IMG/VR virus record: IMGVR_UViG_2802429237_000004
Span: 1 to 32,306 of that record
Direction: 5' to 3' (one strand)
From: a virus
Lineage: Duplodnaviria; Heunggongvirae; Uroviricota; Caudoviricetes
Length of the DNA: 32,306 bases
Of this stretch, positions 1,867 through 30,167 are shown piece after piece. Position 1 is the stretch's first letter, and each line of letters begins with the position of its first letter. The position numbers and the translations under genes were made by a program. Under the pieces are notes generated by a model, which searched no databases, had not been told where the DNA came from, and worked only from the letters and a program-made list of their open reading frames with translations.

Positions 1867-4800
1867 GCGTCGTATCCCCCCTGATCGCTGTAGTTACTCC
1901 TGGCTTTTGCCTTCAGCCTGCGTTCACGTTCATCAAGCTGGCGTGCCACCTCCCGCGCAATATCCTGCGCACTTTGTCCTGGCTGCGTCTGAATGATGAT
2001 CTGCGTCGGTGCCTCAATCCGTTGAACGAGCGGCACAGTGGCTGCGCGACTCACAATTGCTTCTCCACCTTTCGCGGGAAGTGCCAAAGGGTGCAACGGT
2101 GGAAGCTCTGCTGGCGCGGCAGCAACGCCCATCATTCCGGCAACAACGGCAGCCAGTGCAGCTGTATTTCTCCGGCTGGTCACATTTGCCGGGCCGTTAA
2201 CAATTTCCGGCCCGTTTTCACCGACGATGCCAAACTGCCCGCGCGGGATATACCCGCCGCTGTCATACATCCCCGCAAAGCCATATCCCCATGATGGAAA
2301 ACCACCCGATGGCATCATCACTTTACCGTCTGCATTCACCGTCGCAGGTTGCTGACGCGTCACGCTTTCCGGCAGTTTTGCCTTTGCGGCCTCTTTACTG
2401 ACAATGCCGAGCTTCTCCAGCAACCAGGAAACGCCGGATTTCAGGGAGTCCAGCGGATGCATGACCATATTCAGCCCTTCCGCCAGTGCCTCCCCGAATC
2501 GCCGCCCCATTGCCGCTGCGCTCTGCAGTTCGGCAGAGGTCGACTTAACGGGCGTCAGCAGATCAGTAAACCAGCCCCACAGCGCCTGCACTTTGTCGCC
2601 AATCCACTGGAACACGGGCTTAAGCGGTTCGAACGCTGCACTGATGGGACCTGCCGCCGCTTTGAATCCTTCCACCACGCCACCGAGAAATGCGGTGATG
2701 GGTTGCCAGTATTTCCAGACAACCAGCGCCACGCCCGCCAGTGCAGTAACCACAAGACCTATCGGACTGAGCAGAGCACCTAACAGACCAGATATGGCAT
2801 ACAGGGCAACGCGCAGCATCGCCAGCGGGCCGGATGCGAGCACACGCAGCACCGCGCCTGCGGCAGCCAGCCCACCGCGTAGTGCTGCCAGTGGATTCAT
2901 AAACATCACAGCAACAGCACGTAAACCGGATAATCCAGAACGCAAAAGTGCAACCGGCGCACCTGCTACAGTTTTCAGGACATTCCCCATCAGTGATACC
3001 GTGCGACGCAAAGACGACAACGGAGCAGTAAGTAAACCCGCTGCGTTGCCCGATGAAGCAAGCCCGCGTCGCAGCAGTGCCAGTGGTGCGCCAGCCAGCC
3101 AGGACAACGCGCTGCTGGTTCGAGTTACTGCTGCCGTAACGGAAGGTAACGTTTTGATACCCAGCACAGAGAATCCCAGACGGATGACTGCCAGCGGCCC
3201 CAGCACTGCAGCCAGCGCCACCGCTAAGGTGCCGAGGCCTACGGTAACCGCAGCCACCACAGCCGCTACTTTCATCAGTGTGCCTGTCAGTTCCGGGTTA
3301 GCTTCCACCCAGCGGCGCAACGCCCCCATGATGCTTTTCACCGTGTACAGAATATCCATCAGCGGCTGGCGCAGCGTTTCGCCCAGGCTGCTGAAGGTGT
3401 TCTGCGCTCCGGTTTTGACCAGCAACCACTGAGCAGAAAGTGAGTCTTTGTTGATGTCGGATTCTTTCTGCATGGAACCGAGCGCATCATTGCCCGCTGT
3501 CAGTTTTAGCTGGCGCTGCAGTTCCGGAAGGTTGTTTGCCAGTTTCGCCGCGTCATCACCAAACTCTTTACCAAACAACATGGTCATGGCAGACAGACGC
3601 TTGTCCTGCGGCAGTGCGTTCACCTTCTCCAGCACACGCTGGATAGTTCCCATCGCATCCTTCGTCATCTGCTTTTCAATCACTTCAGGATTGAGTTTCA
3701 GCAGATTCATCCCTTCAAAGAAACTCTTGCTTTGCATGGTGGCAATGGACAATTCACGCACCATCGCGTTTGCTGCACTGGCTGCAACCTCCGGCGCAGC
3801 GCCCAGTGTCAGAAAGGTGGAACCCAGTGCCGCCGCTTTACGATAATCCAGACGGTCAGCCACACCGCCCAGACGTTGCATCACATCAATGATGTCCGCC
3901 CCTTTCGACATGGCGTTATCATCCAGATAGTTCAGCGCATCACCGAGCTGTTCAATATTGCGGGTAGGGATTTTGTAGAGCTGGGCGATTTTCCCCAGAC
4001 TTTCTGACAGTTCATCCGCTGGCAGCTCAAAGGCTGTTGCCGCCTTTGCTGCCGTGCTGGCGAAGGCCAGCAGATCACGTTTCTGGTCTTCCCAGCTGTC
4101 GTCAGGGTTTGCGACGTTCATGCGCGCCCCACCTTCAACCAGTGCAGCGAAGTCCACCGCACCGTTTTCCATCGGCAGCTGTTCGCTGGCAGCCTTGATG
4201 GCATCCTGCATTTCATAAAAACGTGCAGTGCGGTTGCCATTATCGTCACGCAGACCATTGACCTGCTTTGCCACACCTTTCATGGCATCTTCCATGCTGG
4301 TATAGCTTTTTACTGCCGCCATCACTGGCGCACCCATTGCCAGCCCTGCAGCCGTGGTAGTGGCTCCGGCTCCTGCGATGCGATCGCGCACTTCAAGCCG
4401 TCTTGAGTATTGTTCTCTGGCAGCGTTCATCCGTGCCTGTTGTTCACCCAGACGTTTAAGTGCTTTTTGCTGGCCCTCCAGTGCCTGCCTTGTTTCTTCA
4501 GCATTTTTCTTAAGTTCTCGCTGGGCACTACTGAGTTGTCTGGTATCAATCCCTGATTCTTTAAGTGCCTGACGTTGTCTCTGGACCGCCCCCAACAAGC
4601 CGTTATAGGTCTGCTGAAGTTCCTGTACTCGTGTTTTGGCCTGACTGAATAACTTTGCCTGCGCGGCGGTTGGCCTGTTAGTGGCAGCAAATTGTGTGGC
4701 GAGTTTTGCCGCCTCTTCGCGGGCTGCGTTCAGGTTGTTGGCTGTTATGGCTAGTTGCGAGCGCGTCTTGCGAAATTCATCAATTCTGCCAGCCTGCTTA

Positions 4801-7255: not shown

Positions 7256-7858
7256 TTAAAATTCTGGTAGTTCGGGCCAGGCAATATCAGGGGCAGTGCT
7301 GATATCTGTTGCCGTCACTGCATCGATGTAGTCAAGAACAGCATTAAGTTTTACTGTTTCTGCATCAGTTAATTTTCTTCCGGCCCGTAATTTCAGTTGA
7401 ATCAAACTAACGGAAGCCATTGCAGTATCAATCAGTGACCGACGCTGTGTTTCTGCCGCTTCTACTGCGGCGCGATGTTGTATTTCAGTATCCGTCACCC
7501 ATTTCTCACCATCCCATTTATCATATGGCGTTAACGGGGCGATATTGGTTGTATTTTCAGGGTAATCACCCGGATTTGTGATTTCTTTGGCATCTCCCGT
7601 TTCGGTGCTATAGACAGTTTCACCGCGATGGTCTGGCACATATTCCCATGAGTTTAAATCCGCAGAGCGGCAGATGGCATAACCAGCTTTATATGTTCCT
7701 GGTGCATCTAAACAGGAACATGCCGGAATACCGACACCAACAGCAAGATATTCAGTTGATGTGGAAATATATTCTCGTGTTTCACCATTATAATTATAGA
7801 CAGTAATATCCCCCGCCTTCGTGGCAATAAACTCGTTATTTAATACAGCATTATCCAT
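7256..7858 (-). CDS. G: Tail fiber assembly chaperone
   Basis: 200-aa ORF immediately downstream of tail fiber gene H with 1-nt overlap; P2 gpG position and size. Confidence 0.8.
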   Translation of the reverse strand: MDNAVLNNEFIATKAGDITVYNYNGETREYISTSTEYLAVGVGIPACSCLDAPGTYKAGYAICRSADLNSWEYVPDHRGETVYSTETGDAKEITNPGDYPENTTNIAPLTPYDKWDGEKWVTDTEIQHRAAVEAAETQRRSLIDTAMASVSLIQLKLRAGRKLTDAETVKLNAVLDYIDAVTATDISTAPDIAWPELPEF

Positions 7859-9594
7859 TATGCAGCCCTCACTATATAGTTAAATGCAATATTTCGCGCA
7901 CGTGTTTCCGTTGATGTTCTGGCAACACGTGATGCATCAAAATAATAATTCGCCTGTTTATATGTACCACCTGTCGCAATTGATGCGAGATTTGGTGTCA
8001 ATGTTGAAGAGGTAAATACGCCGACAGTATTATTATTTGGCCCCGTGGTCATATCCAAAAAGCTCCCTGTAATATTTTGCAGCGTATCGCTCTGAGCACT
8101 CAATAACGCTCGCCCACTGTCCACGCCACGCCCGTCATCCCAGCCACGAATAAACTCGCCACGAAGATCGGGTACTTTTCCTGATGGATATGCTGTAGCA
8201 AGTCGGGGATATTTCACCTTATCAAAGGCAGCACCATTGCATTTCAACCAGCCTGTCGGTGGAGTGGAAGAAGGCCACGGAACAGGGATACCTACAGGTA
8301 ATGCTGAACCTTCTCCCAAACCAAGGTACGCGAGAAGACCAGCAACATCCTTTCCACTCAAATTAGTCAGCGTATTGTCCAGCGGTTGTTTACCTGACAG
8401 AGCATTCAACATTGTCGTGGCAAAGTTCGGGTCATTTCCCAGCGCCGCCGCCAGTTCGTTCAGTGTATCCAGTGCAGCAGGTGCAGAACCCACCATTGCC
8501 GCAATTGCCGATTTCACAAAAGCCGTGGTGGCAATCTGTGTATTGTTGACCGACTGTGCCGCTGTAGGTGCTGTTGGCGTTCCGGTGAGTGCCGGACTCG
8601 ACAGTGGCGCTTTCAGTGCCAGCGCATTGTTAATGGTGGTACTGAATTTCGGGTCATTATTAATGGCTGCGGCTATTTCTTTCAGCGTGTCCAGCGTGGC
8701 GGGCGCGCCATTAATCAGGGCTTTCAGTGCCGCCTGAACAAACGCCGTGGTGGCAATCTGTGTATTGTTGACCGACTGTGCCGCAGTCGGCGCTGTTGGC
8801 GTCCCGGTAAGTGCCGGACTTGACAGTGGCGCTTTTAGTTCCAGCGCATTGTTAATGGTGGTGCTGAATTTCGGGTCATTGTTTATGGCTGCGGCTATTT
8901 CTTTCAGCGTGTCCAGCGTGGCTGGCGCACCATTAATAAGGGCCTTCAGTGCCGCCTGAACAAACGCGGTGGTCGCAAGTTGCGTGGTATTATTCCCCGC
9001 CGCTGGCGTTGGTGCTTTGGGGGTTCCGGTAAACGTCGGGCTGGCTTTTGGCGCGTACTGTGAATGCGGGTCCAGTGCGGCAAGATGTTTTGCCATCAGA
9101 TCATCCACGTACACCTTCAGCTCCAGTGCCTTGTCATCCACATACTTGCGGGTTGCCAGCACAACGGCAGGGTCGATTTTCAGGGTGATATTGTCCGTGC
9201 TGCTGGTTATCAGCACCATGCGCACGGTCTGGGTGCGCCCGCTGCCTTCAGCCAGTTGCGGTTTATAGCTTTCCGGGCAGTTCCCCACGGCAATCAATGC
9301 CCCTGACTCATCAAACAGGCCCACTTCACGTATCCACCAACCGCCCTCGTTTTCAGGGATCACCTGTTCAGCAATAATCTGGCTGCTGTTCTGCGGGTCG
9401 ATATAGAGCATATTCAGCGCAGCCCGGCGTTTCTCATTTACCAGTGCAGTCTGCTTTGCGTCCGGCGTCGGCAATACTCCGCCGCCATCGCCCACCGCCA
9501 TATGGGTAATTTTTAGCGGCACACCGAGCGCGGCGGCGCTGGCAAGTTTCGCCGCGCCAATATCCGTCAGCAGGGTATAAAATTTTGTGCTCAT
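7858..9594 (-). CDS. H: Tail fiber protein H
   Basis: 578-aa ORF with an N-terminal P2 H-like region, internal 74-aa tandem repeats, and a C-terminal receptor-binding-type region; followed by G. Confidence 0.85.
   Translation of the reverse strand: MSTKFYTLLTDIGAAKLASAAALGVPLKITHMAVGDGGGVLPTPDAKQTALVNEKRRAALNMLYIDPQNSSQIIAEQVIPENEGGWWIREVGLFDESGALIAVGNCPESYKPQLAEGSGRTQTVRMVLITSSTDNITLKIDPAVVLATRKYVDDKALELKVYVDDLMAKHLAALDPHSQYAPKASPTFTGTPKAPTPAAGNNTTQLATTAFVQAALKALINGAPATLDTLKEIAAAINNDPKFSTTINNALELKAPLSSPALTGTPTAPTAAQSVNNTQIATTAFVQAALKALINGAPATLDTLKEIAAAINNDPKFSTTINNALALKAPLSSPALTGTPTAPTAAQSVNNTQIATTAFVKSAIAAMVGSAPAALDTLNELAAALGNDPNFATTMLNALSGKQPLDNTLTNLSGKDVAGLLAYLGLGEGSALPVGIPVPWPSSTPPTGWLKCNGAAFDKVKYPRLATAYPSGKVPDLRGEFIRGWDDGRGVDSGRALLSAQSDTLQNITGSFLDMTTGPNNNTVGVFTSSTLTPNLASIATGGTYKQANYYFDASRVARTSTETRARNIAFNYIVRAA
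8522..8965. repeat. Near-identical 222-bp tandem repeat (two full copies) inside tail fiber gene H, with diverged copies on either side
   Basis: The string gccgtggtggcaatctgtgtattgttgaccgactgtgccgc recurs with a 222-nt period (starts near 8522 and 8744), with a diverged copy near 8966; it encodes a repeated 74-aa unit (PALTGTPTAPTAAQSVNNTQIATTAFVQAALKALINGAPATLDTLKEIAAAINNDPKFSTTINNAL). Confidence 0.85.
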
Positions 9595-10196
9595 GGATTC
9601 ACTCTCATTGTGTCAATAACATGGACCGCCCCGCCTTCATGCGCGGTGCCGCCGGAAATAATTGTTTCGTTGATATACGGATAGATCGTGATTTCTTCGC
9701 CAAGATAGCTGGCGGCCCCCACCCAATGCGGACCGCTGGTCTGCAGATTGATGGACATGCCGATCATGTGACGGCTACATGGTTTGGCATCGCTTATCAG
9801 TCGCTCAAGTTCCAGATAGGTATCTTCAGTGATGCCCTGGTCCTGCACGCCGATATCCAGGCGAAACGTGCCCGGTGCCTCTCCGGTCTGCCACCACTCA
9901 ATAATGCGGATCAGAAAGCCGAACGGCTCCACCACCCGCCGCACGGCACTGGTGGTTCCTTTATGCTGATGAATATAAAAAGCATCCTTCACCACCTGGC
10001 GCTTGACGCTTTCTGTCCAGCTCTCGTCCCAGCGATCCACAGAGAACGCCCAGGCGAGATAAGGCAGGAAACTGACCGGACAGGTTGCCGGATTCCACAA
10101 GTCACGCAGCGGCACCTGCAGATCAGAAATCCCACTGCAGGTTTGCGCCAGTCGTCGCTCCAGTGAAGTTGAACCCGGTGGCAGCAGACTATTCAT
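9591..10196 (-). CDS. I: Baseplate protein I
   Basis: 201-aa ORF between J and H; contains the LWNPATCPVSFLPYLAWAFSVDRWDE segment I recall as typical of P2 gpI. Confidence 0.85.
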   Translation of the reverse strand: MNSLLPPGSTSLERRLAQTCSGISDLQVPLRDLWNPATCPVSFLPYLAWAFSVDRWDESWTESVKRQVVKDAFYIHQHKGTTSAVRRVVEPFGFLIRIIEWWQTGEAPGTFRLDIGVQDQGITEDTYLELERLISDAKPCSRHMIGMSINLQTSGPHWVGAASYLGEEITIYPYINETIISGGTAHEGGAVHVIDTMRVNP

Positions 10197-11097
10197 CCGT
10201 TCCCCCGTTGGTCACGCTCCACTGAGTACATGATGCCGCCTGCGTTTTGTTCAGGACCACATCCGCCAGCGGCGAAGCCAGCTCCACACGCTGCACACCC
10301 TCAACATGCAGGGCGGCAAAAATGGCGCTACGGCGAATATCCCGACCAAGCCGCGTCTGACTGGCGATGTACTTCTGCAGGCTGGCTTTTGCCGCTGCCA
10401 TTACCGGCTCGGCTTCCGGCCCCGGATAGAGAAAAATGGTGGCATCCACCCGGTACGGGATGATTTCTGCGCTGCGAACCGTCAGACGGTCAGCCACCGG
10501 GCGGACGTTCTCACTGTTCAGAGATTTTTCCACCACGTCCAGCAGGTCTTTTTCTGCAGTTCCATCGCCTTCACGGCTAAGGACAGTCAGCACCACCTCT
10601 GCAGGTGCCGGGCTGGTTGCACTGGCATCCGCCACCCGACCGTCGGCGCTTCGGGCATGAAATTCATAAGCTGCAGTTGGCCCCGCGACTGAAAGCCCTT
10701 CAAAGGCTGCAGGCACACGCAGGCGTAACGCTTCATCGCTTTCCATCACAGCCGCAACGGGCGGCACAGCGTCATTATCAGCAGGCGTCACCGTCAGGCG
10801 TTTCACGTTGTAGTTGGCAGCGAGCTGGTCCAGATCGCCGCCCATCGCGTAAGCCACCATCACCGCCTGCGCGGCTTCGTTAATGCGCTGTCGCAGAAGC
10901 AACTCACGGTAAGCGTTCTCCTGCAACAATTTGGTGACGGGTTCAGATTCCAGTTCCAGCGTGCGCATCACTGCTTCCTGTTCATCTTTCGGATGAAGCG
11001 CCACAAATTCTGCCTTGCGTTCGGCAAGCAGCGTCTCAAAGTCCGGCACATCCACAATCTGCGGCGCAGGCAACTGCGAAAGGTCAATCACTGCCAT
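10189..11097 (-). CDS. J: Baseplate assembly protein J
   Basis: Start moved to the internal MAVIDLSQLPAP (the ORF-track start at 11136 gives a non-homologous leader); about 302 aa, matching P2 gpJ. Confidence 0.85.
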   Translation of the reverse strand: MAVIDLSQLPAPQIVDVPDFETLLAERKAEFVALHPKDEQEAVMRTLELESEPVTKLLQENAYRELLLRQRINEAAQAVMVAYAMGGDLDQLAANYNVKRLTVTPADNDAVPPVAAVMESDEALRLRVPAAFEGLSVAGPTAAYEFHARSADGRVADASATSPAPAEVVLTVLSREGDGTAEKDLLDVVEKSLNSENVRPVADRLTVRSAEIIPYRVDATIFLYPGPEAEPVMAAAKASLQKYIASQTRLGRDIRRSAIFAALHVEGVQRVELASPLADVVLNKTQAASCTQWSVTNGGTDE

Positions 11098-11443
11098 TCT
11101 CTGCTCCTGTTGATACAGAAAGGGAAACAGGCACACCGTTATTACGCCGCCCGGTCAGCTCCACCACCATTGAACCGTCAAAATTGCTGTTGATGGTGAT
11201 GGAATCCAGCGTAAGCCGTGGCTCCCAGCGACTCAGTGCCACATACACTGCCGACATGACCTGCAGGCGTAACGCCGGATTTTGTGGCTGATCTATTAAA
11301 GCCGACAGCAGGGAACCATATTCCCGGCGGGCAATGCGGCTACCCTGCGGTGTCAGCAGAATGTCCCGCACCGACTGGCGCAGATGGTCAATATCAGTAA
11401 TGGCTTTACCGCTGGTATTGTTCATCCCGCTATAAAGCGTCAT
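11084..11443 (-). CDS. W: Baseplate wedge protein W (gp25-like)
   Basis: 119-aa ORF between V and J, 4-nt overlap with V; P2 gpW size and position. Confidence 0.85.
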   Translation of the reverse strand: MTLYSGMNNTSGKAITDIDHLRQSVRDILLTPQGSRIARREYGSLLSALIDQPQNPALRLQVMSAVYVALSRWEPRLTLDSITINSNFDGSMVVELTGRRNNGVPVSLSVSTGAENGSD

Positions 11444-12110: not shown

Positions 12111-12872
12111 ATGAAAGATAATTTAAATCTTCTTATAAAAAAATTAATAGGAAAGGCCTTTCCTGAATTTAGCAATAAGATAACATGGACTTTACTCACT
12201 GCAGGGATCGGTATTCTTGCACTACCTGCACCCACATATTTATTATTCGTAAACCTTATAATTGATTTTTACAACAAAACAACTAATTCAGAAATCAGCC
12301 TTCTTAAGATTGATAGCATTACACCAAGTAGTGGGGTTGCTTTAACTTTAATTCTATCCGGACTAGTCTTCCACCTATTAATAAAAGCCCCCCAGATATA
12401 CCAAGAAATTCTAAAAAAGAATAACAAAAAAGAAACACAGGAAAGAAAAAGAGTAGCAGACGTTAAACTTTATGAGGCATTTATTGAGATTCTACCTACA
12501 ACCTCGTTATCAATTGAGTTCTTAAAAGACCATGATTTTGAAAACTCCTATCATGATAATAATACAAAAGATTTTAGTAAACTTGAATACGGGTGGGGTC
12601 ATGCAGATCAACATTTTCATGACAATGAAATTGAAGATAAAGCCGTTCATCTTTATAGTGAAATAATAAAGTTCGATTATTTTCTCGCTTATAAATCGCA
12701 CAATATCAATGACTATATGTTTAGCATGCTTACTGACAGAGATCGAGCTATGGTGATGGAATTATTACCTCAAACAAAGGAAAATATAAAAATAGCCAAT
12801 GAGTGGAGTTCTACAATTCATCAGCTTTACTGTGACTTTATCTCCACATGTAGGAATAACTTAGCCATATAA
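12111..12872 (+). CDS. AT-rich cargo gene: predicted 2-TM membrane protein with unknown C-terminal domain
   Basis: 253-aa ORF with AAGGA Shine-Dalgarno 6 nt before the ATG; two hydrophobic helices (ITWTLLTAGIGILALPAPTYLLFVNLII and SGVALTLILSGLVFHLLI) then a roughly 160-aa soluble domain; visibly AT-rich against GC-rich flanking tail genes; located between S and V, where P2 carries orf30. Confidence 0.6.
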   Translation: MKDNLNLLIKKLIGKAFPEFSNKITWTLLTAGIGILALPAPTYLLFVNLIIDFYNKTTNSEISLLKIDSITPSSGVALTLILSGLVFHLLIKAPQIYQEILKKNNKKETQERKRVADVKLYEAFIEILPTTSLSIEFLKDHDFENSYHDNNTKDFSKLEYGWGHADQHFHDNEIEDKAVHLYSEIIKFDYFLAYKSHNINDYMFSMLTDRDRAMVMELLPQTKENIKIANEWSSTIHQLYCDFISTCRNNLAI

Positions 12873-18461: not shown

Positions 18462-20228
18462 ATGAACACCACACTGACACCCGCAGATCTCGATCCCCGT
18501 CGGCAGGCCATGCTGCTGTACTTTCAGGGATACCGCGTCGCCCGCATTGCTGAAATGCTGGGCGAGAAAGTTGCAACCGTTCACAGCTGGAAAAAACGCG
18601 ACAAGTGGGGTGACTATGGGCCGCTGGATCAGATGCAGCTCACCACCGCCGCACGCTACTGCCAGCTCATTATGAAGGAGCACAAAGAAGGGAAAGATTT
18701 CAAAGAGATTGACCTGCTGGCGCGCCAGTCTGAGCGCCACGCGCGGATCGGCAAGTTTAACAATGGCGGCAACGAAGCTGACTTAAACCCTAACGTCGCC
18801 AACCGCAACAAAGGCCCGCGCCGTCAGCCGGAAAAGAATGTCTTCACCGATGAACAGATTGAGAAGCTGGAAGAAATCTTCCATTCCTCCATGTTCAACT
18901 ACCAGCGCCACTGGTGGGAAGCCGGAAAAACCAACCGCATCCGCAACCTGCTGAAGTCACGCCAGATCGGCGCGACCTTTTACTTTGCCCGTGAAGCCCT
19001 GATTGACGCCCTGCTTACCGGACGTAACCAGATTTTCCTTTCCGCCAGCAAGGCACAGGCCCACGTCTTTAAGCAGTACATCATCGACTTCGCCAAAGAA
19101 GTGGATGTGGAACTGAAAGGCGATCCGATGGTGCTTCCCAACGGGGCCACGCTTTACTTCCTCGGCACCAATGCCCGCACGGCCCAGAGTTACCACGGCA
19201 ACCTGTATCTGGATGAATATTTCTGGATACCGAAATTCCAGGAGCTGCGCAAAGTGGCTTCCGGTATGGCTATTCACAAAAAATGGCGACAGACCTATTT
19301 TTCCACGCCATCCAGTCTGACACACAGTGCTTATCCGTTCTGGTCCGGTGCGCTGTTCAACCGTGGGCGCAACAAAGCCGATAAGGTGGACATCGACCTG
19401 TCCCACAGCAATCTGGCCCCCGGCCTGCTGTGCGCAGACGGGCAATACCGCCAGATAGTCACCGTGGAAGATGCGGTGCGCGGCGGCTGCAACCTGTTCG
19501 ACCTTGACCAGTTGCGCATGGAGTACAGCCCGGACGAATACCAGAACCTGCTGATGTGCGAGTTCGTGGACGATCTCGCGTCCGTGTTCCCGCTCAGCGA
19601 GCTGCAGGCGTGCATGGTGGACAGCTGGGAAGTCTGGACCGACTTTCATGCACTGGCACTGCGCCCGTTTGGCTGGCGCGAAGTGTGGATCGGTTATGAC
19701 CCGGCGAAAGGTACGCAGAACGGCGACAGTGCCGGATGCGTGGTGGTGGCACCGCCAGCCGTGCCGGGCGGCAAGTTCCGCATTCTTGAGCGTCACCAGT
19801 GGCGCGGGATGGACTTTCGCGCCCAGGCTGACGCCATCAAAAAACTGACCGAACAGTACAACGTGACCTATATCGGCATCGACTCAACCGGCGTTGGTCA
19901 CGGGGTTTACGAGAACGTGAAAGCGTTTTTTCCTGCCGTCCGGGAGTTTGTCTACAACCCCAACGTTAAAAACGCCCTGGTACTCAAGGCCTACGACATT
20001 ATCAGCCACCGCCGTCTGGAGTTTGACGCCGGACACACCGACATAGCGCAGTCATTTATGGCAATCCGTCGCGCCACCACCGCCAGTGGCAACCGCCCGA
20101 CCTATGAAGCCAGCCGCAGCGAAGAAGCCAGCCACGCCGATCTGGCCTGGGCAACCATGCACGCACTGTTTAACGAACCGCTGCAGGGCGAGTCCGCCAA
20201 TACCAGCAATATTGTGGAGATTTTTTGA
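18462..20228 (+). CDS. P: Terminase large (ATPase) subunit P
   Basis: 588-aa ORF divergent from O and followed by portal Q with overlapping stop/start (TGATG); P2 gpP size and position. Confidence 0.9.
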   Translation: MNTTLTPADLDPRRQAMLLYFQGYRVARIAEMLGEKVATVHSWKKRDKWGDYGPLDQMQLTTAARYCQLIMKEHKEGKDFKEIDLLARQSERHARIGKFNNGGNEADLNPNVANRNKGPRRQPEKNVFTDEQIEKLEEIFHSSMFNYQRHWWEAGKTNRIRNLLKSRQIGATFYFAREALIDALLTGRNQIFLSASKAQAHVFKQYIIDFAKEVDVELKGDPMVLPNGATLYFLGTNARTAQSYHGNLYLDEYFWIPKFQELRKVASGMAIHKKWRQTYFSTPSSLTHSAYPFWSGALFNRGRNKADKVDIDLSHSNLAPGLLCADGQYRQIVTVEDAVRGGCNLFDLDQLRMEYSPDEYQNLLMCEFVDDLASVFPLSELQACMVDSWEVWTDFHALALRPFGWREVWIGYDPAKGTQNGDSAGCVVVAPPAVPGGKFRILERHQWRGMDFRAQADAIKKLTEQYNVTYIGIDSTGVGHGVYENVKAFFPAVREFVYNPNVKNALVLKAYDIISHRRLEFDAGHTDIAQSFMAIRRATTASGNRPTYEASRSEEASHADLAWATMHALFNEPLQGESANTSNIVEIF

Positions 20229-21265
20229 TGGGAAAGAGTAAAAAGAACCGCGCTGCGGCGACGAAACAGATCCAGCTTAAAAGCCAGACTACAGCCGAAG
20301 CATTCAGCTTCGGCGATCCCGTTCCTGTTCTGGACCGCCGAGAACTGCTGGACTATGTGGAATGCGTACAGATGGACCGTTGGTATGAGCCGCCCGTCAG
20401 CTTTGACGGACTGGCGCGCACCTTCCGCGCTGCCGTGCATCACAGTTCCCCGATTGCAGTAAAGTGCAACATTCTGACCAGTACCTATATCCCTCATCCG
20501 CTGCTCAGCCAGCAGGCTTTTTCGCGTTTTGTGCAGGACTATCTGGTATTTGGTAACGCCTACCTGGAGAAACGCACGAACCGCTTCGGTGAAGTTATCG
20601 CCCTTGAGCCTGCGCTGGCAAAATACACCCGACGCGGATTAGACCTGGATACCTACTGGTTTGTGCAATACGGCATGACTACGCAGCCGTATCAGTTCAC
20701 GAAAGGCAGCATTTTTCATCTGATGGAACCGGACATCAACCAGGAGATCTACGGCCTGCCCGGTTATCTTTCTGCCATTCCGTCAGCCCTGCTCAACGAG
20801 TCCGCCACGCTGTTCCGCCGGAAGTATTACATTAACGGTAGTCATGCAGGCTTCATCATGTACATGACCGATGCCGCGCAGAACCAGGAAGACGTGAACA
20901 ACCTCCGCAACGCAATGAAAAGCGCCAAAGGACCGGGTAACTTCCGCAACCTGTTTATGTACTCGCCTAACGGGAAAAAGGACGGACTTCAGATTATCCC
21001 GTTGTCAGAAGTGGCGGCGAAGGATGAGTTTCTAAACATCAAGAACGTGAGCCGGGATGACATGATGGCGGCGCATCGTGTGCCACCGCAAATGATGGGG
21101 ATTATGCCTAATAATGTTGGGGGATTTGGGGATGTAGAGAAAGCTAGTAATGTATTTGTGCGAAATGAATTACTACCATTGCAAAAGCGAATCACAGAAT
21201 TTAATGAGTGGATAGGAAACAATGTAGTTCAATTTGAGCCTTATACTTTCGAGATTAGAGAATAA
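20228..21265 (+). CDS. Q: Portal protein Q
   Basis: ORF-track start at 20225 is a TTG; the ATG at 20228 (MGKSKKNR) overlaps the P stop; about 345 aa, P2 gpQ size and position; the last 150 nt or so are conspicuously AT-rich. Confidence 0.9.
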   Translation: MGKSKKNRAAATKQIQLKSQTTAEAFSFGDPVPVLDRRELLDYVECVQMDRWYEPPVSFDGLARTFRAAVHHSSPIAVKCNILTSTYIPHPLLSQQAFSRFVQDYLVFGNAYLEKRTNRFGEVIALEPALAKYTRRGLDLDTYWFVQYGMTTQPYQFTKGSIFHLMEPDINQEIYGLPGYLSAIPSALLNESATLFRRKYYINGSHAGFIMYMTDAAQNQEDVNNLRNAMKSAKGPGNFRNLFMYSPNGKKDGLQIIPLSEVAAKDEFLNIKNVSRDDMMAAHRVPPQMMGIMPNNVGGFGDVEKASNVFVRNELLPLQKRITEFNEWIGNNVVQFEPYTFEIRE

Positions 21266-21314: not shown

Positions 21315-22346
21315 CTATCTTTTTATTGCTCGTAGAGTAGTCATTAAATTCTCCCCATAAGGGGTTAAGGTCCAATATGTACCCTTGTCTTTTACACTTC
21401 TATTTCTTTCACTTTGGACCATAAGCCCTAGAGCTCGGAATTGTACTTTGATTGTCTGGACATCAGAACTATCCATACGAATAAACTTTATATGCATATT
21501 TTTAAAATCATCATCCGACCTCAACCCTGCCTCAACAATTTCATAGATGGAAGCGTTGATCAACGTTTTTAATCTATCATCGGAAATTTCATCAATCATA
21601 TAGGGAGAAATATAGGAAAATAATGAATTCCAACTTATCTGAGAGGTCCACTCATACTCTGAACCATCAGATGTCCACTCTGTAGGAGAAGCATGGAAGC
21701 TACATTTAAAAGTAAATAAATCGTCTCCTTGTGCAAGATCCTCAGTCCCTTTCGGTGCAGTTGTGGTATTCTTACTTAATTGATTTTCAAGTTCCTCAAT
21801 AGTCCTCTTCAACCCAAGAATTTCTTTTGCTGAACTCTCACTAGTAACTAAATCTCCACGAACCCATCCTACAGCAGGATGATCTTTAATAAGCCTAATC
21901 AAACTTCTACTGACTTGGCTTCCTAAGTCCGCAGGAGTTTCCCAGAATCGGCAAAGTTTCTTTTTAACAAGCTCTTCAAATGCTTCTAGCTTTTCTTTTC
22001 CTTGAGGAGATGGCTCACATCGCTGGGATGGTAAAAGACCTTTATTTTTGTGCAAAAAACCAATTACTGGCTTTCCTGATTCAACAGCGTAACGATACTC
22101 CATCTCAGTATAACTTATCCCATCAGGCCCTAAGGAACCGTAACGCCCCGCAAGGATTACAATGTAATAATCACTATCATCAATTATTTTCTTTATTAAG
22201 CTCCATTGATCACTATTAGTAGCAGGAAACAACTCCATACCAGCAGGTATACAATCCAGCTCTAAAAGAGCCTGCATGACCTCTTGACGTTCAGTTTCCA
22301 GGTCTGAGTATGTTGAACTAACAAAAACTTGATACCGCTTGTCCAA
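21315..22346 (-). CDS. AT-rich cargo gene: protein with DUF4062-like N-terminal module and unknown C-terminal domain (candidate defence/abortive-infection effector)
   Basis: 343-aa ORF; N-terminus YQVFVSSTYSDLETERQEVMQALLELDCIPAGMELFPA...DYYIVILAGRYGS matches my recollection of the DUF4062 signature; in-frame start is TTG preceded by GAGGGA at good spacing (no upstream in-frame ATG; the next ATG would cut the conserved motif); flanked by terminator hairpins. Confidence 0.6.
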   Translation of the reverse strand: MDKRYQVFVSSTYSDLETERQEVMQALLELDCIPAGMELFPATNSDQWSLIKKIIDDSDYYIVILAGRYGSLGPDGISYTEMEYRYAVESGKPVIGFLHKNKGLLPSQRCEPSPQGKEKLEAFEELVKKKLCRFWETPADLGSQVSRSLIRLIKDHPAVGWVRGDLVTSESSAKEILGLKRTIEELENQLSKNTTTAPKGTEDLAQGDDLFTFKCSFHASPTEWTSDGSEYEWTSQISWNSLFSYISPYMIDEISDDRLKTLINASIYEIVEAGLRSDDDFKNMHIKFIRMDSSDVQTIKVQFRALGLMVQSERNRSVKDKGTYWTLTPYGENLMTTLRAIKR

Positions 22347-29228: not shown

Positions 29229-30167
29229 ATGTCAACTCAAAAAAACACATTTCGCCATGTTAGCGAGAGTCTAAAAACTTCAATAATGCAAAACCGTGGG
29301 GGACAGAAAGTAATTGAGCGTATACTTGTTGCGTATGGTTTTACTTCGCGGCAAGCATTTTGCAATCATCTGGGTATCTCACAAAGCACGATGGCCAACA
29401 GGTATGCTCGTGACACATTTCCTGCTGACTGGGTGATAATTTGCAGTATAGAGACCGGCGCATCTATCGACTGGTTGGCATCGGGAATCAGCTGTGAATC
29501 ATCCTCAGTTTTATTAAATGATGAACGTTTAGCCCATACCAAATCTGATGACCTGGATAGAACTAATTCAATAGCCCAAAAGTTCCCAATCGAGACCAGC
29601 ATAAATCCTAATAAAGGAGGGAAGGCGGCAATTGATCGCTTAGTCGCAGCCTACGGCTTTAGCACCCGACAAGCCCTAGCAAACCATTTGCAGGTTTCAA
29701 AAAGCACTGTAGCAAACAGGTACTTACGAGACACGTTTCCTAGCGACTGGATCATTCAATGCGCTCTTGAAACAGGAACTTCATTACTCTGGCTCACAAA
29801 CGGCAATGGCCCCAAATTTATCGATAATTCCAGCTCTGTAGCCCAACTTAAACACCAAACAATCATTGACGGTAAATTACATGATGAAGGCTACTTAGCA
29901 TTTGACAAGACGCTTATACCTTCCGGATTGAAAAAACCTATTGGAGTTACCGCAGAAGGAAAAACCTTTATTGCAGATACAGAATATGATGATGTTTCAG
30001 ATGGTAGTTGGTTGATTGAGATTGAAGGTAAAGTAAGTTTAAGAAAATTAACAAGAATTCCAGTTGGAAAAGTAAAAATCACATCAGATACAACTGATTT
30101 TGTTTGTAAGCTTGAAGACATTACAACCATCGCAAAATGTTGTTGCGTTTTTTCAAAGGAAATTTAA
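29229..30167 (+). CDS. cI: CI-like immunity repressor with two tandem 186 CI-type N-terminal HTH domains
   Basis: 312-aa ORF; two consecutive segments (ERILVAYGFTSRQAFCNHLGISQSTMANRYARDTFPADWVIICSIETGASIDWLASG and DRLVAAYGFSTRQALANHLQVSKSTVANRYLRDTFPSDWIIQCALETGTSLLWLTNG) each resemble the 186 CI N-terminal DNA-binding domain; AT-rich C-terminal third; start codon choice uncertain (weak Shine-Dalgarno). Confidence 0.7.
   Translation: MSTQKNTFRHVSESLKTSIMQNRGGQKVIERILVAYGFTSRQAFCNHLGISQSTMANRYARDTFPADWVIICSIETGASIDWLASGISCESSSVLLNDERLAHTKSDDLDRTNSIAQKFPIETSINPNKGGKAAIDRLVAAYGFSTRQALANHLQVSKSTVANRYLRDTFPSDWIIQCALETGTSLLWLTNGNGPKFIDNSSSVAQLKHQTIIDGKLHDEGYLAFDKTLIPSGLKKPIGVTAEGKTFIADTEYDDVSDGSWLIEIEGKVSLRKLTRIPVGKVKITSDTTDFVCKLEDITTIAKCCCVFSKEI

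Follow-up and report, generated by a model that had tools for sequence, protein, structure and literature searches.

A 74-residue shaft module in the H-type tail fibre of a P2-like prophage, its copy number and a shared recombination junction

Introduction

A tandem repeat inside a phage tail-fibre gene raises the question of whether the array is a recent and unstable product of slippage, or an established part of the fibre whose copy number changes by another route. We address this question for gene H of a prophage contained in a stretch of 32,306 nucleotides (IMG/VR record IMGVR_UViG_2802429237_000004; the window). A first-pass annotation of this DNA had described two almost identical 222-bp units with diverged copies before and after them, and considered them substrates for slipped or unequal recombination, through which fibre length might vary between isolates, as well as a likely source of assembly collapse.

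Gene H and its prophage setting

The 578-aa ORF at window positions 7858-9594 (minus strand) is an H-type tail-fibre gene according to the ORF listing and Pfam. It shares with P2 gpH and the H fibres of P2/186-like prophages (Peduoviridae) a full-length PF12571 domain at the N-terminus, a C-terminal part with a collar domain (aa 435-482, E 6.5e-14) and the I-H-G gene order. In the window the order is J, I, H and then the chaperone, all on the minus strand, which is the arrangement that marks a P2 gpH-type fibre. The tip has sequence matches in the PDB to the short tail fibre 9cuy_c (1e-24) and to the T4 gp37 tip (2xgf, 1e-17). The genes and domains are the following:

7256..7858, minus strand: tail fibre assembly chaperone (G-like); Pfam Caudo_TAP, 3.6e-31
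7858..9594, minus strand: tail fibre gene H; Phage_tail_fib at aa 1-150, Collar at aa 435-482
9145..9594, minus strand: N-terminal baseplate-attachment domain of H, aa 1-150; Pfam PF12571, profile positions 1-150 of 150, E 1.1e-64
7861..8307, minus strand: C-terminal collar and receptor-binding tip of H, aa 430-578; PDB sequence matches and Pfam Collar
9591..10196, minus strand: baseplate protein I, upstream neighbour of H; Pfam Tail_P2_I, 9.6e-55
10189-11136, minus strand: Baseplate_J gene; Pfam

The exact 578-aa protein is present in public collections, where it is annotated as an E. coli 'phage tail protein'. The remainder of the window is a P2/186-like prophage, with gpD, a tape measure protein, gpA, a Dam methylase, a 186-type CI, CII and a DinI-like protein, and its first 25 kb are about 95.5% identical, over 87%, to Klebsiella phage Kp4845-2 (Peduoviridae) and to near-identical sister records.

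Some other ORFs of the prophage were noted in passing. The 312-aa ORF at 29229-30167 (plus strand) contains two Pfam Phage_CI_repr stretches and Phage_CI_C, and is presumably longer than the 186 CI repressor; either its listed start is over-extended or its helix-turn-helix domain is duplicated. Between the ORFs at 18462-21265 and the DinI-like gene lies a 343-aa DUF4062 protein (21315-22346, minus strand, 7e-29), which has the appearance of accessory cargo and may be a defence gene. A 253-aa ORF without a Pfam match (12111-12872, plus strand) runs opposite to the adjoining ORFs of the baseplate region, and the E. coli MEI005 prophage carries a 'hypothetical protein' at the corresponding position.

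Three in-frame 74-aa units in gene H

Tandem Repeats Finder reported one array at 8516-8978, with a period of 222, 2.1 copies, 92% matches and 0 indels, and a second repeat search paired 8506-8727 with 8728-8949 at 91%. When gene H was compared with itself at offsets of 30-700 nt, identity in the best 150-nt segment was 93% at an offset of 222, 63% at 444 and at most 46% at the others. The identity maximum in 30 codon-shuffled versions of the gene was 45%, so the periodicity is far beyond chance. The 222-bp tandem repeat is thus real, and the in-frame reading, together with the Pfam domains, also bears out the earlier statement that it encodes a 74-aa module of H located between the attachment domain and the receptor-binding end. 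In frame, exactly three 74-aa (222-nt) units follow the attachment domain and precede the C-terminal collar and tip:

8833..9054, minus strand: shaft unit 1, aa 181-254; N-terminal 26 aa diverged, the rest lies in duplicated copy A
8611..8832, minus strand: shaft unit 2, aa 255-328; absent from two-unit relatives
8389..8610, minus strand: shaft unit 3, aa 329-402; N-terminal part identical to unit 2, C-terminal 42 aa diverged

At the protein level units 1 and 2 are identical at 62/74 residues, units 2 and 3 at 55/74, and units 1 and 3 at 44/74. The differences between units 1 and 2 are confined to the first 26 residues and E252/A326, and those between units 2 and 3 to the last 42 residues. What had been taken for diverged copies before and after the repeat are thus the outer halves of units 1 (N-terminal) and 3 (C-terminal), and no further copies are found there.

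The duplicated DNA is a 241-nt block, which begins at one ATTAFV-coding motif and ends two such motifs further on:

8738..8978, minus strand: duplicated segment copy A, gene nt 617-857; 240/241 identical to the single copy of the E. coli MEI005 prophage
8516..8756, minus strand: duplicated segment copy B, gene nt 839-1079; 223/241 identical to copy A

Copies A and B differ at 18 positions (92.5% identity), 17 of which are synonymous, and their longest exact common run is 41 nt; the corresponding proteins are identical at 79/80 residues. The Nei-Gojobori estimates, calculated over an in-frame stretch slightly longer than 241 nt, are dS 0.34 and dN 0.011. With the unit boundaries drawn in the first-pass annotation (8522-8743 and 8744-8965), 207/222 positions are identical (93.2%). 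The units can therefore be called almost identical as protein, but not as DNA.

Two kinds of variable locus were considered for this region and rejected. A target of a diversity-generating retroelement does not fit the predominance of synonymous differences between the copies, nor the involvement of all four bases in them, and no reverse transcriptase was found among the 14 window ORFs scanned. A phase-variable (contingency) locus was discarded as well, given a unit length that is a multiple of 3, an identity of 92.5% and a location inside a coding region. On the plus strand, the repeat region also contains antisense ORFs at 8237-8737, 8747-8959 and 8969-9268 (166, 70 and 99 aa), which are themselves repeated and, in all likelihood, a by-product of coding for an Ala/Thr-rich repeat.

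Distribution and structure of the module

The N-terminal half of the module is extended and Pro/Thr-rich (APLxSPxLTGxPxAPTxxxxxNxTQIATTAFV), and the C-terminal half (xxALxALIxxAPxxLDTLxELAxALxNDPxF...K) is probably helical. In an alignment of 18 diverse units, the three of the window included, residues G10, P12, A27, V32, P44, T49, L50 and D60 are invariant. With unit 2 alone as query, 22,508 representatives of clusters built at 50% identity are matched (E<=1e-3). Full units are present in 88 of the 150 best representatives, with 1-11 per protein and most often two: 16 proteins have one unit, 43 have two, 20 have three and 4 have four, while five units occur in 1, six in 2, nine in 1 and 11 in 1. 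The N-terminal half also frequently forms arrays by itself. In the protein with nine full units (P0134), two non-adjacent ones are 97% identical.

No curated model of the 74-aa unit was found in Pfam (E<=10) or NCBIfam (E<=1), PF03406 (Phage_fiber_2), for example, not being matched; the weak matches to Acyl-CoA_ox_N and HTH_3 concern unrelated families and were discarded. Nor did literature searches on P2 gpH repeats, fibre copy number and the matching PDB entries turn up a description of the unit, the only structural hint in them being the stem of the cyanophage A4 gp24 described below.

An AlphaFold2 monomer model of aa 161-430, calculated from an alignment of 40 close homologues, is unreliable (pLDDT 39, pTM 0.22), and gives only a hint that each unit may begin with a coil of some 22 residues and continue with three helices. 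Sequence matches in the PDB cover halves of the unit only, and no solved chain contains the whole 74-aa unit or the tandem array. The C-terminal half (profile positions 27-74, 6e-14) matches 9d93, 'tail collar fibers gp4', and 6v8i, the 80alpha FibU gp68, in which the part matching the module is unmodelled (PMC7048315). The N-terminal half (profile positions 1-39, 1e-8 to 1e-9) matches the cyanophage A4 gp24 (9k09), whose stem is formed by three alpha-helices (PMC12002296), the phiTE fibre (9cuy_g) and 9cod.

Unit number in related H genes

In all of the best 40 matches to gene H from 5,426 complete E. coli genomes, the target is 222 nt shorter than the stretch of query that it matches, and the same holds for the leading phage records. 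Among the 120 best protein-cluster representatives from a collection of 5.8 billion proteins, 115 have two units and one has three in tandem (P0002, an E. coli cluster of 14 members found on >100 contigs); a four-unit version of the module array was not found in any of them. A query with the 463-nt array is uninformative on unit number because two-unit genes also read 100% coverage, with two overlapping pieces of the query joined onto one 241-nt target. The copy-B unit was therefore queried alone.

The same module is present at the same position, from aa 181 onward, in the Escherichia phage P2 record (KC618326, host O157:H43 T22) and in all the close E. coli and Klebsiella phage H homologues examined. 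These phage genes have two modules and encode 463-519 aa, whereas the window allele class has three modules and 578 aa. The H gene of the E. coli MEI005 prophage (NZ_CP071259, WP_075370768.1, 504 aa) is the best match among the complete E. coli genomes: it differs from the window gene by 5 nt and by the lack of one unit of exactly 222 nt, with near-identical flanks (615/616 and 654/658 nt, a 0.4% difference) and a single copy like copy A. With two units in most relatives and in MEI005, and three in the window allele class, the prediction that module number varies between isolates proved correct.

Two further arrangements were observed among the relatives. A 768-aa Salmonella Typhi protein annotated at NCBI as 'Gifsy-2 prophage tail fiber protein' (P0001) has four copies of the motif, which are due to a 264-aa internal direct duplication and not to the module array. 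The duplicated block runs from NNTTQVATTAFV through the collar domain and starts at the same motif as the module junction. The cluster has this protein as its sole member, on one contig, and the duplication may be genuine or produced by assembly. In a two-unit relative (L006, a contig from Logan ERR3469155), the region 3589-4515, downstream of H-G, contains a second, inverted Caudo_TAP gene and a resolvase/HTH_7 invertase, which suggests an invertible fibre-tip segment that is absent from the window.

A recombination junction used in two registers

Comparison of the window gene with two other alleles reveals its mosaic structure. Up to gene nt 845 it has the sequence of the two-unit LR-48 allele without any difference, and from nt 811 to the end it has 4 differing sites relative to the three-unit P0127 allele. 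The window gene is a recombinant, with an LR-48-like 5' part and a P0127-like 3' part. MEI005 has one difference from LR-48 through nt 845 and, from nt 811 on, 3 differing sites relative to P0127 shifted by +222 nt. The joints of the two genes lie in the same 41-nt stretch, which encodes AAQSVNNTQIATTA, one unit apart in register:

8744..8784, minus strand: 41-nt identical stretch, encodes AAQSVNNTQIATTA; inferred crossover interval of the window mosaic
8522..8562, minus strand: second copy of the 41-nt AAQSVNNTQIATTA stretch; register of the joint between MEI005 and the downstream allele

A single junction, present twice in three-unit genes, thus accounts for both the three-unit recombinant (window) and the two-unit one (MEI005), the latter joining the downstream allele one register later. 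MEI005 could be an out-of-register recombinant, or a deletion derivative of a window-type gene that arose via the same stretch. The change in copy number that could be traced is homologous recombination between alleles, in two registers and at an identical junction of 41 nt, and not the slippage that had been suggested at first.

We also considered stimulation of this recombination by Chi, which was rejected, as the site GCTGGTGG does not occur on either strand of the 32.3-kb window; its absence is in itself not significant, because only about 1.3 sites are expected by chance.

Age and lineage of the extra unit

DNA of the window gene, of four other three-unit E. coli genes (L002-L005) and of several two-unit alleles was compared. 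The B copies of L002-L005 differ from the window copy B at 1-6/241 nt, and among the five genes the differences are 1-11/241. Their A copies, in contrast, are 18-19 nt away from the window copy A and resemble various two-unit alleles. At the protein level, unit 1 is variable across the three-unit genes and unit 2 almost invariant. Since the B copies are alike while the A copies match different alleles, the extra unit appears to be a single lineage whose surroundings have been exchanged with two-unit alleles, although part of this pattern could reflect the spread of one allele instead of age. Between copies, dS in the three-unit genes ranges from 0.29 to 0.44, which is higher than the allelic values for the N-terminal domain in this group (0.09-0.16) and far below the dS to the P2-labelled record (1.6). 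Taken together, these sequence comparisons make it very probable that the extra unit is an old duplicate, kept by purifying selection and gained or lost by recombination at the conserved junction.

An alternative origin is that the extra unit was recently imported from a diverged H allele, by unequal crossover between co-resident P2-like phages, and in that case the divergence between copies A and B would measure the divergence of alleles and not the age of a duplication. This is compatible with the clearly mosaic nature of H genes, with the 18/241 differences between A and B, which are inside the between-allele range of 10-26/241, and with the up to 5 places matching H-gene sequence in some E. 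coli genomes, but we consider it unlikely. A donor was not found: with the 222-nt query 8516-8737, no copy-B unit above 95.0% identity was detected in the 5,426 complete E. coli genomes (best match 95.0%), and the best match in 50,697 phage records was 93.2%. The B lineage is seen only in three-unit genes, where it is already diversified (by the same 1-11 differences), and the window gene is explained by in-register recombination with an existing three-unit allele.

The first-pass view of the array, a recent in-place duplication by replication slippage or unequal sister-strand exchange with near-identical, unstable copies, is very unlikely and, at the window locus, largely refuted. The copies are indeed tandem, in frame and without indels, and the near-identical window and MEI005 alleles differ by having three and two units, respectively. 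However, the copies differ by 7.5%, against only 0.4% for the flanks relative to MEI005, and the between-copy dS (0.34 in the window gene) exceeds the allelic dS. The extra units of the five three-unit genes stay within 1-11/241 nt of each other while other parts of these genes have diverged, they have no match above 95.0% in the E. coli genomes, and no four-unit array exists among the 120 best representatives. Some support for such an origin comes from another host. The H gene of a Kluyvera cryocrescens prophage (L014), found in a scan of one genome per species, has three units, and its two duplicated copies are only 12/241 nt apart and share a 131-nt identical run, each being 43-52 differences away from every E. 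coli or phage copy compared. By its sequence, this array suggests either that the duplication took place independently or that gene conversion has acted between the copies; the 12/241 differences indicate that a fairly recent event of one of these two kinds does occur in this H family.

Finally, a spurious or mis-counted repeat created by assembly is extremely improbable, for although tandem repeats can mis-assemble and the 264-aa duplication in the single P0001 record is suspicious, the exact window protein is found on 7 contigs and its cluster on >100 from independent assemblies, and the copies have 18 differing positions in an intact reading frame. As these positions allow short reads to separate copies A and B, and the three-unit cluster is recovered from many assemblies, the anticipated risk of assembly collapse is not serious.

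Discussion

The results described above can be brought together in the following model, which builds on an old, retained duplicate. The shaft of a putative trimeric P2-type fibre is assembled from a widespread 74-aa module, and the extra module would have arisen by a 222-nt in-frame duplication, from one ATTAFV-coding motif to the next. This duplication would be old relative to the divergence of alleles in the window H-gene group. Strong purifying selection has since preserved the duplicate as a functional component of the fibre. Segments are exchanged between alleles by homologous recombination, and because the module end encoding AAQSVNNTQIATTA is conserved at the nucleotide level and occurs twice in three-unit genes, a crossover can be resolved in either register, giving a two- or a three-unit product. 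We infer that each chain of the shaft becomes one module longer with the extra unit, and a longer shaft may alter the reach of the fibre to its receptor.

The difference in copy number is ordinary tail-fibre modularity. Haggard-Ljungquist and colleagues in 1992, and Sandmeier in 1994, reportedly described shaft motifs that recur within other tail fibres, and the horizontal transfer of fibre segments at conserved motifs. The H genes studied here have in common with other modular tail fibres the use of conserved motifs as exchange points and a variable number of repeats; what sets them apart is a unit defined as 74 aa, a crossover interval narrowed to 41 nt, and natural isolates in which the two registers occur. 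What is new is therefore modest, and consists only of a resolved recombination junction and an abundant, uncurated repeat unit. The case is more a clean and well-documented example than a surprise, with both register outcomes of one junction present in natural isolates.

There are two practical consequences. The annotation of tail fibres would benefit from a curated model of the 74-aa unit, which is present in >22,000 cluster representatives. The ATTAFV junction offers a natural site for splicing, which could be used to build P2-type or pyocin-type fibres of graded length.

A more speculative idea, to which we give a rather low probability, is that the 41-nt boundary encoding AAQSVNNTQIATTA is itself kept as a recombination linker, which would allow changes in length by whole modules and the tuning of the shaft to the surface layer of the host. 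If this were true, P2-like phages would change their fibre by whole modules (two, three or more) at allele exchange, shaft length would be fitted to the thickness of the O-antigen or capsule, and spontaneous collapse of the array would be held in check by the synonymous differences that the copies have outside this boundary. As for the evolution of these fibres, the window gene illustrates that an additional module may last as a paralogue under selection and does not have to behave as an unstable repeat.
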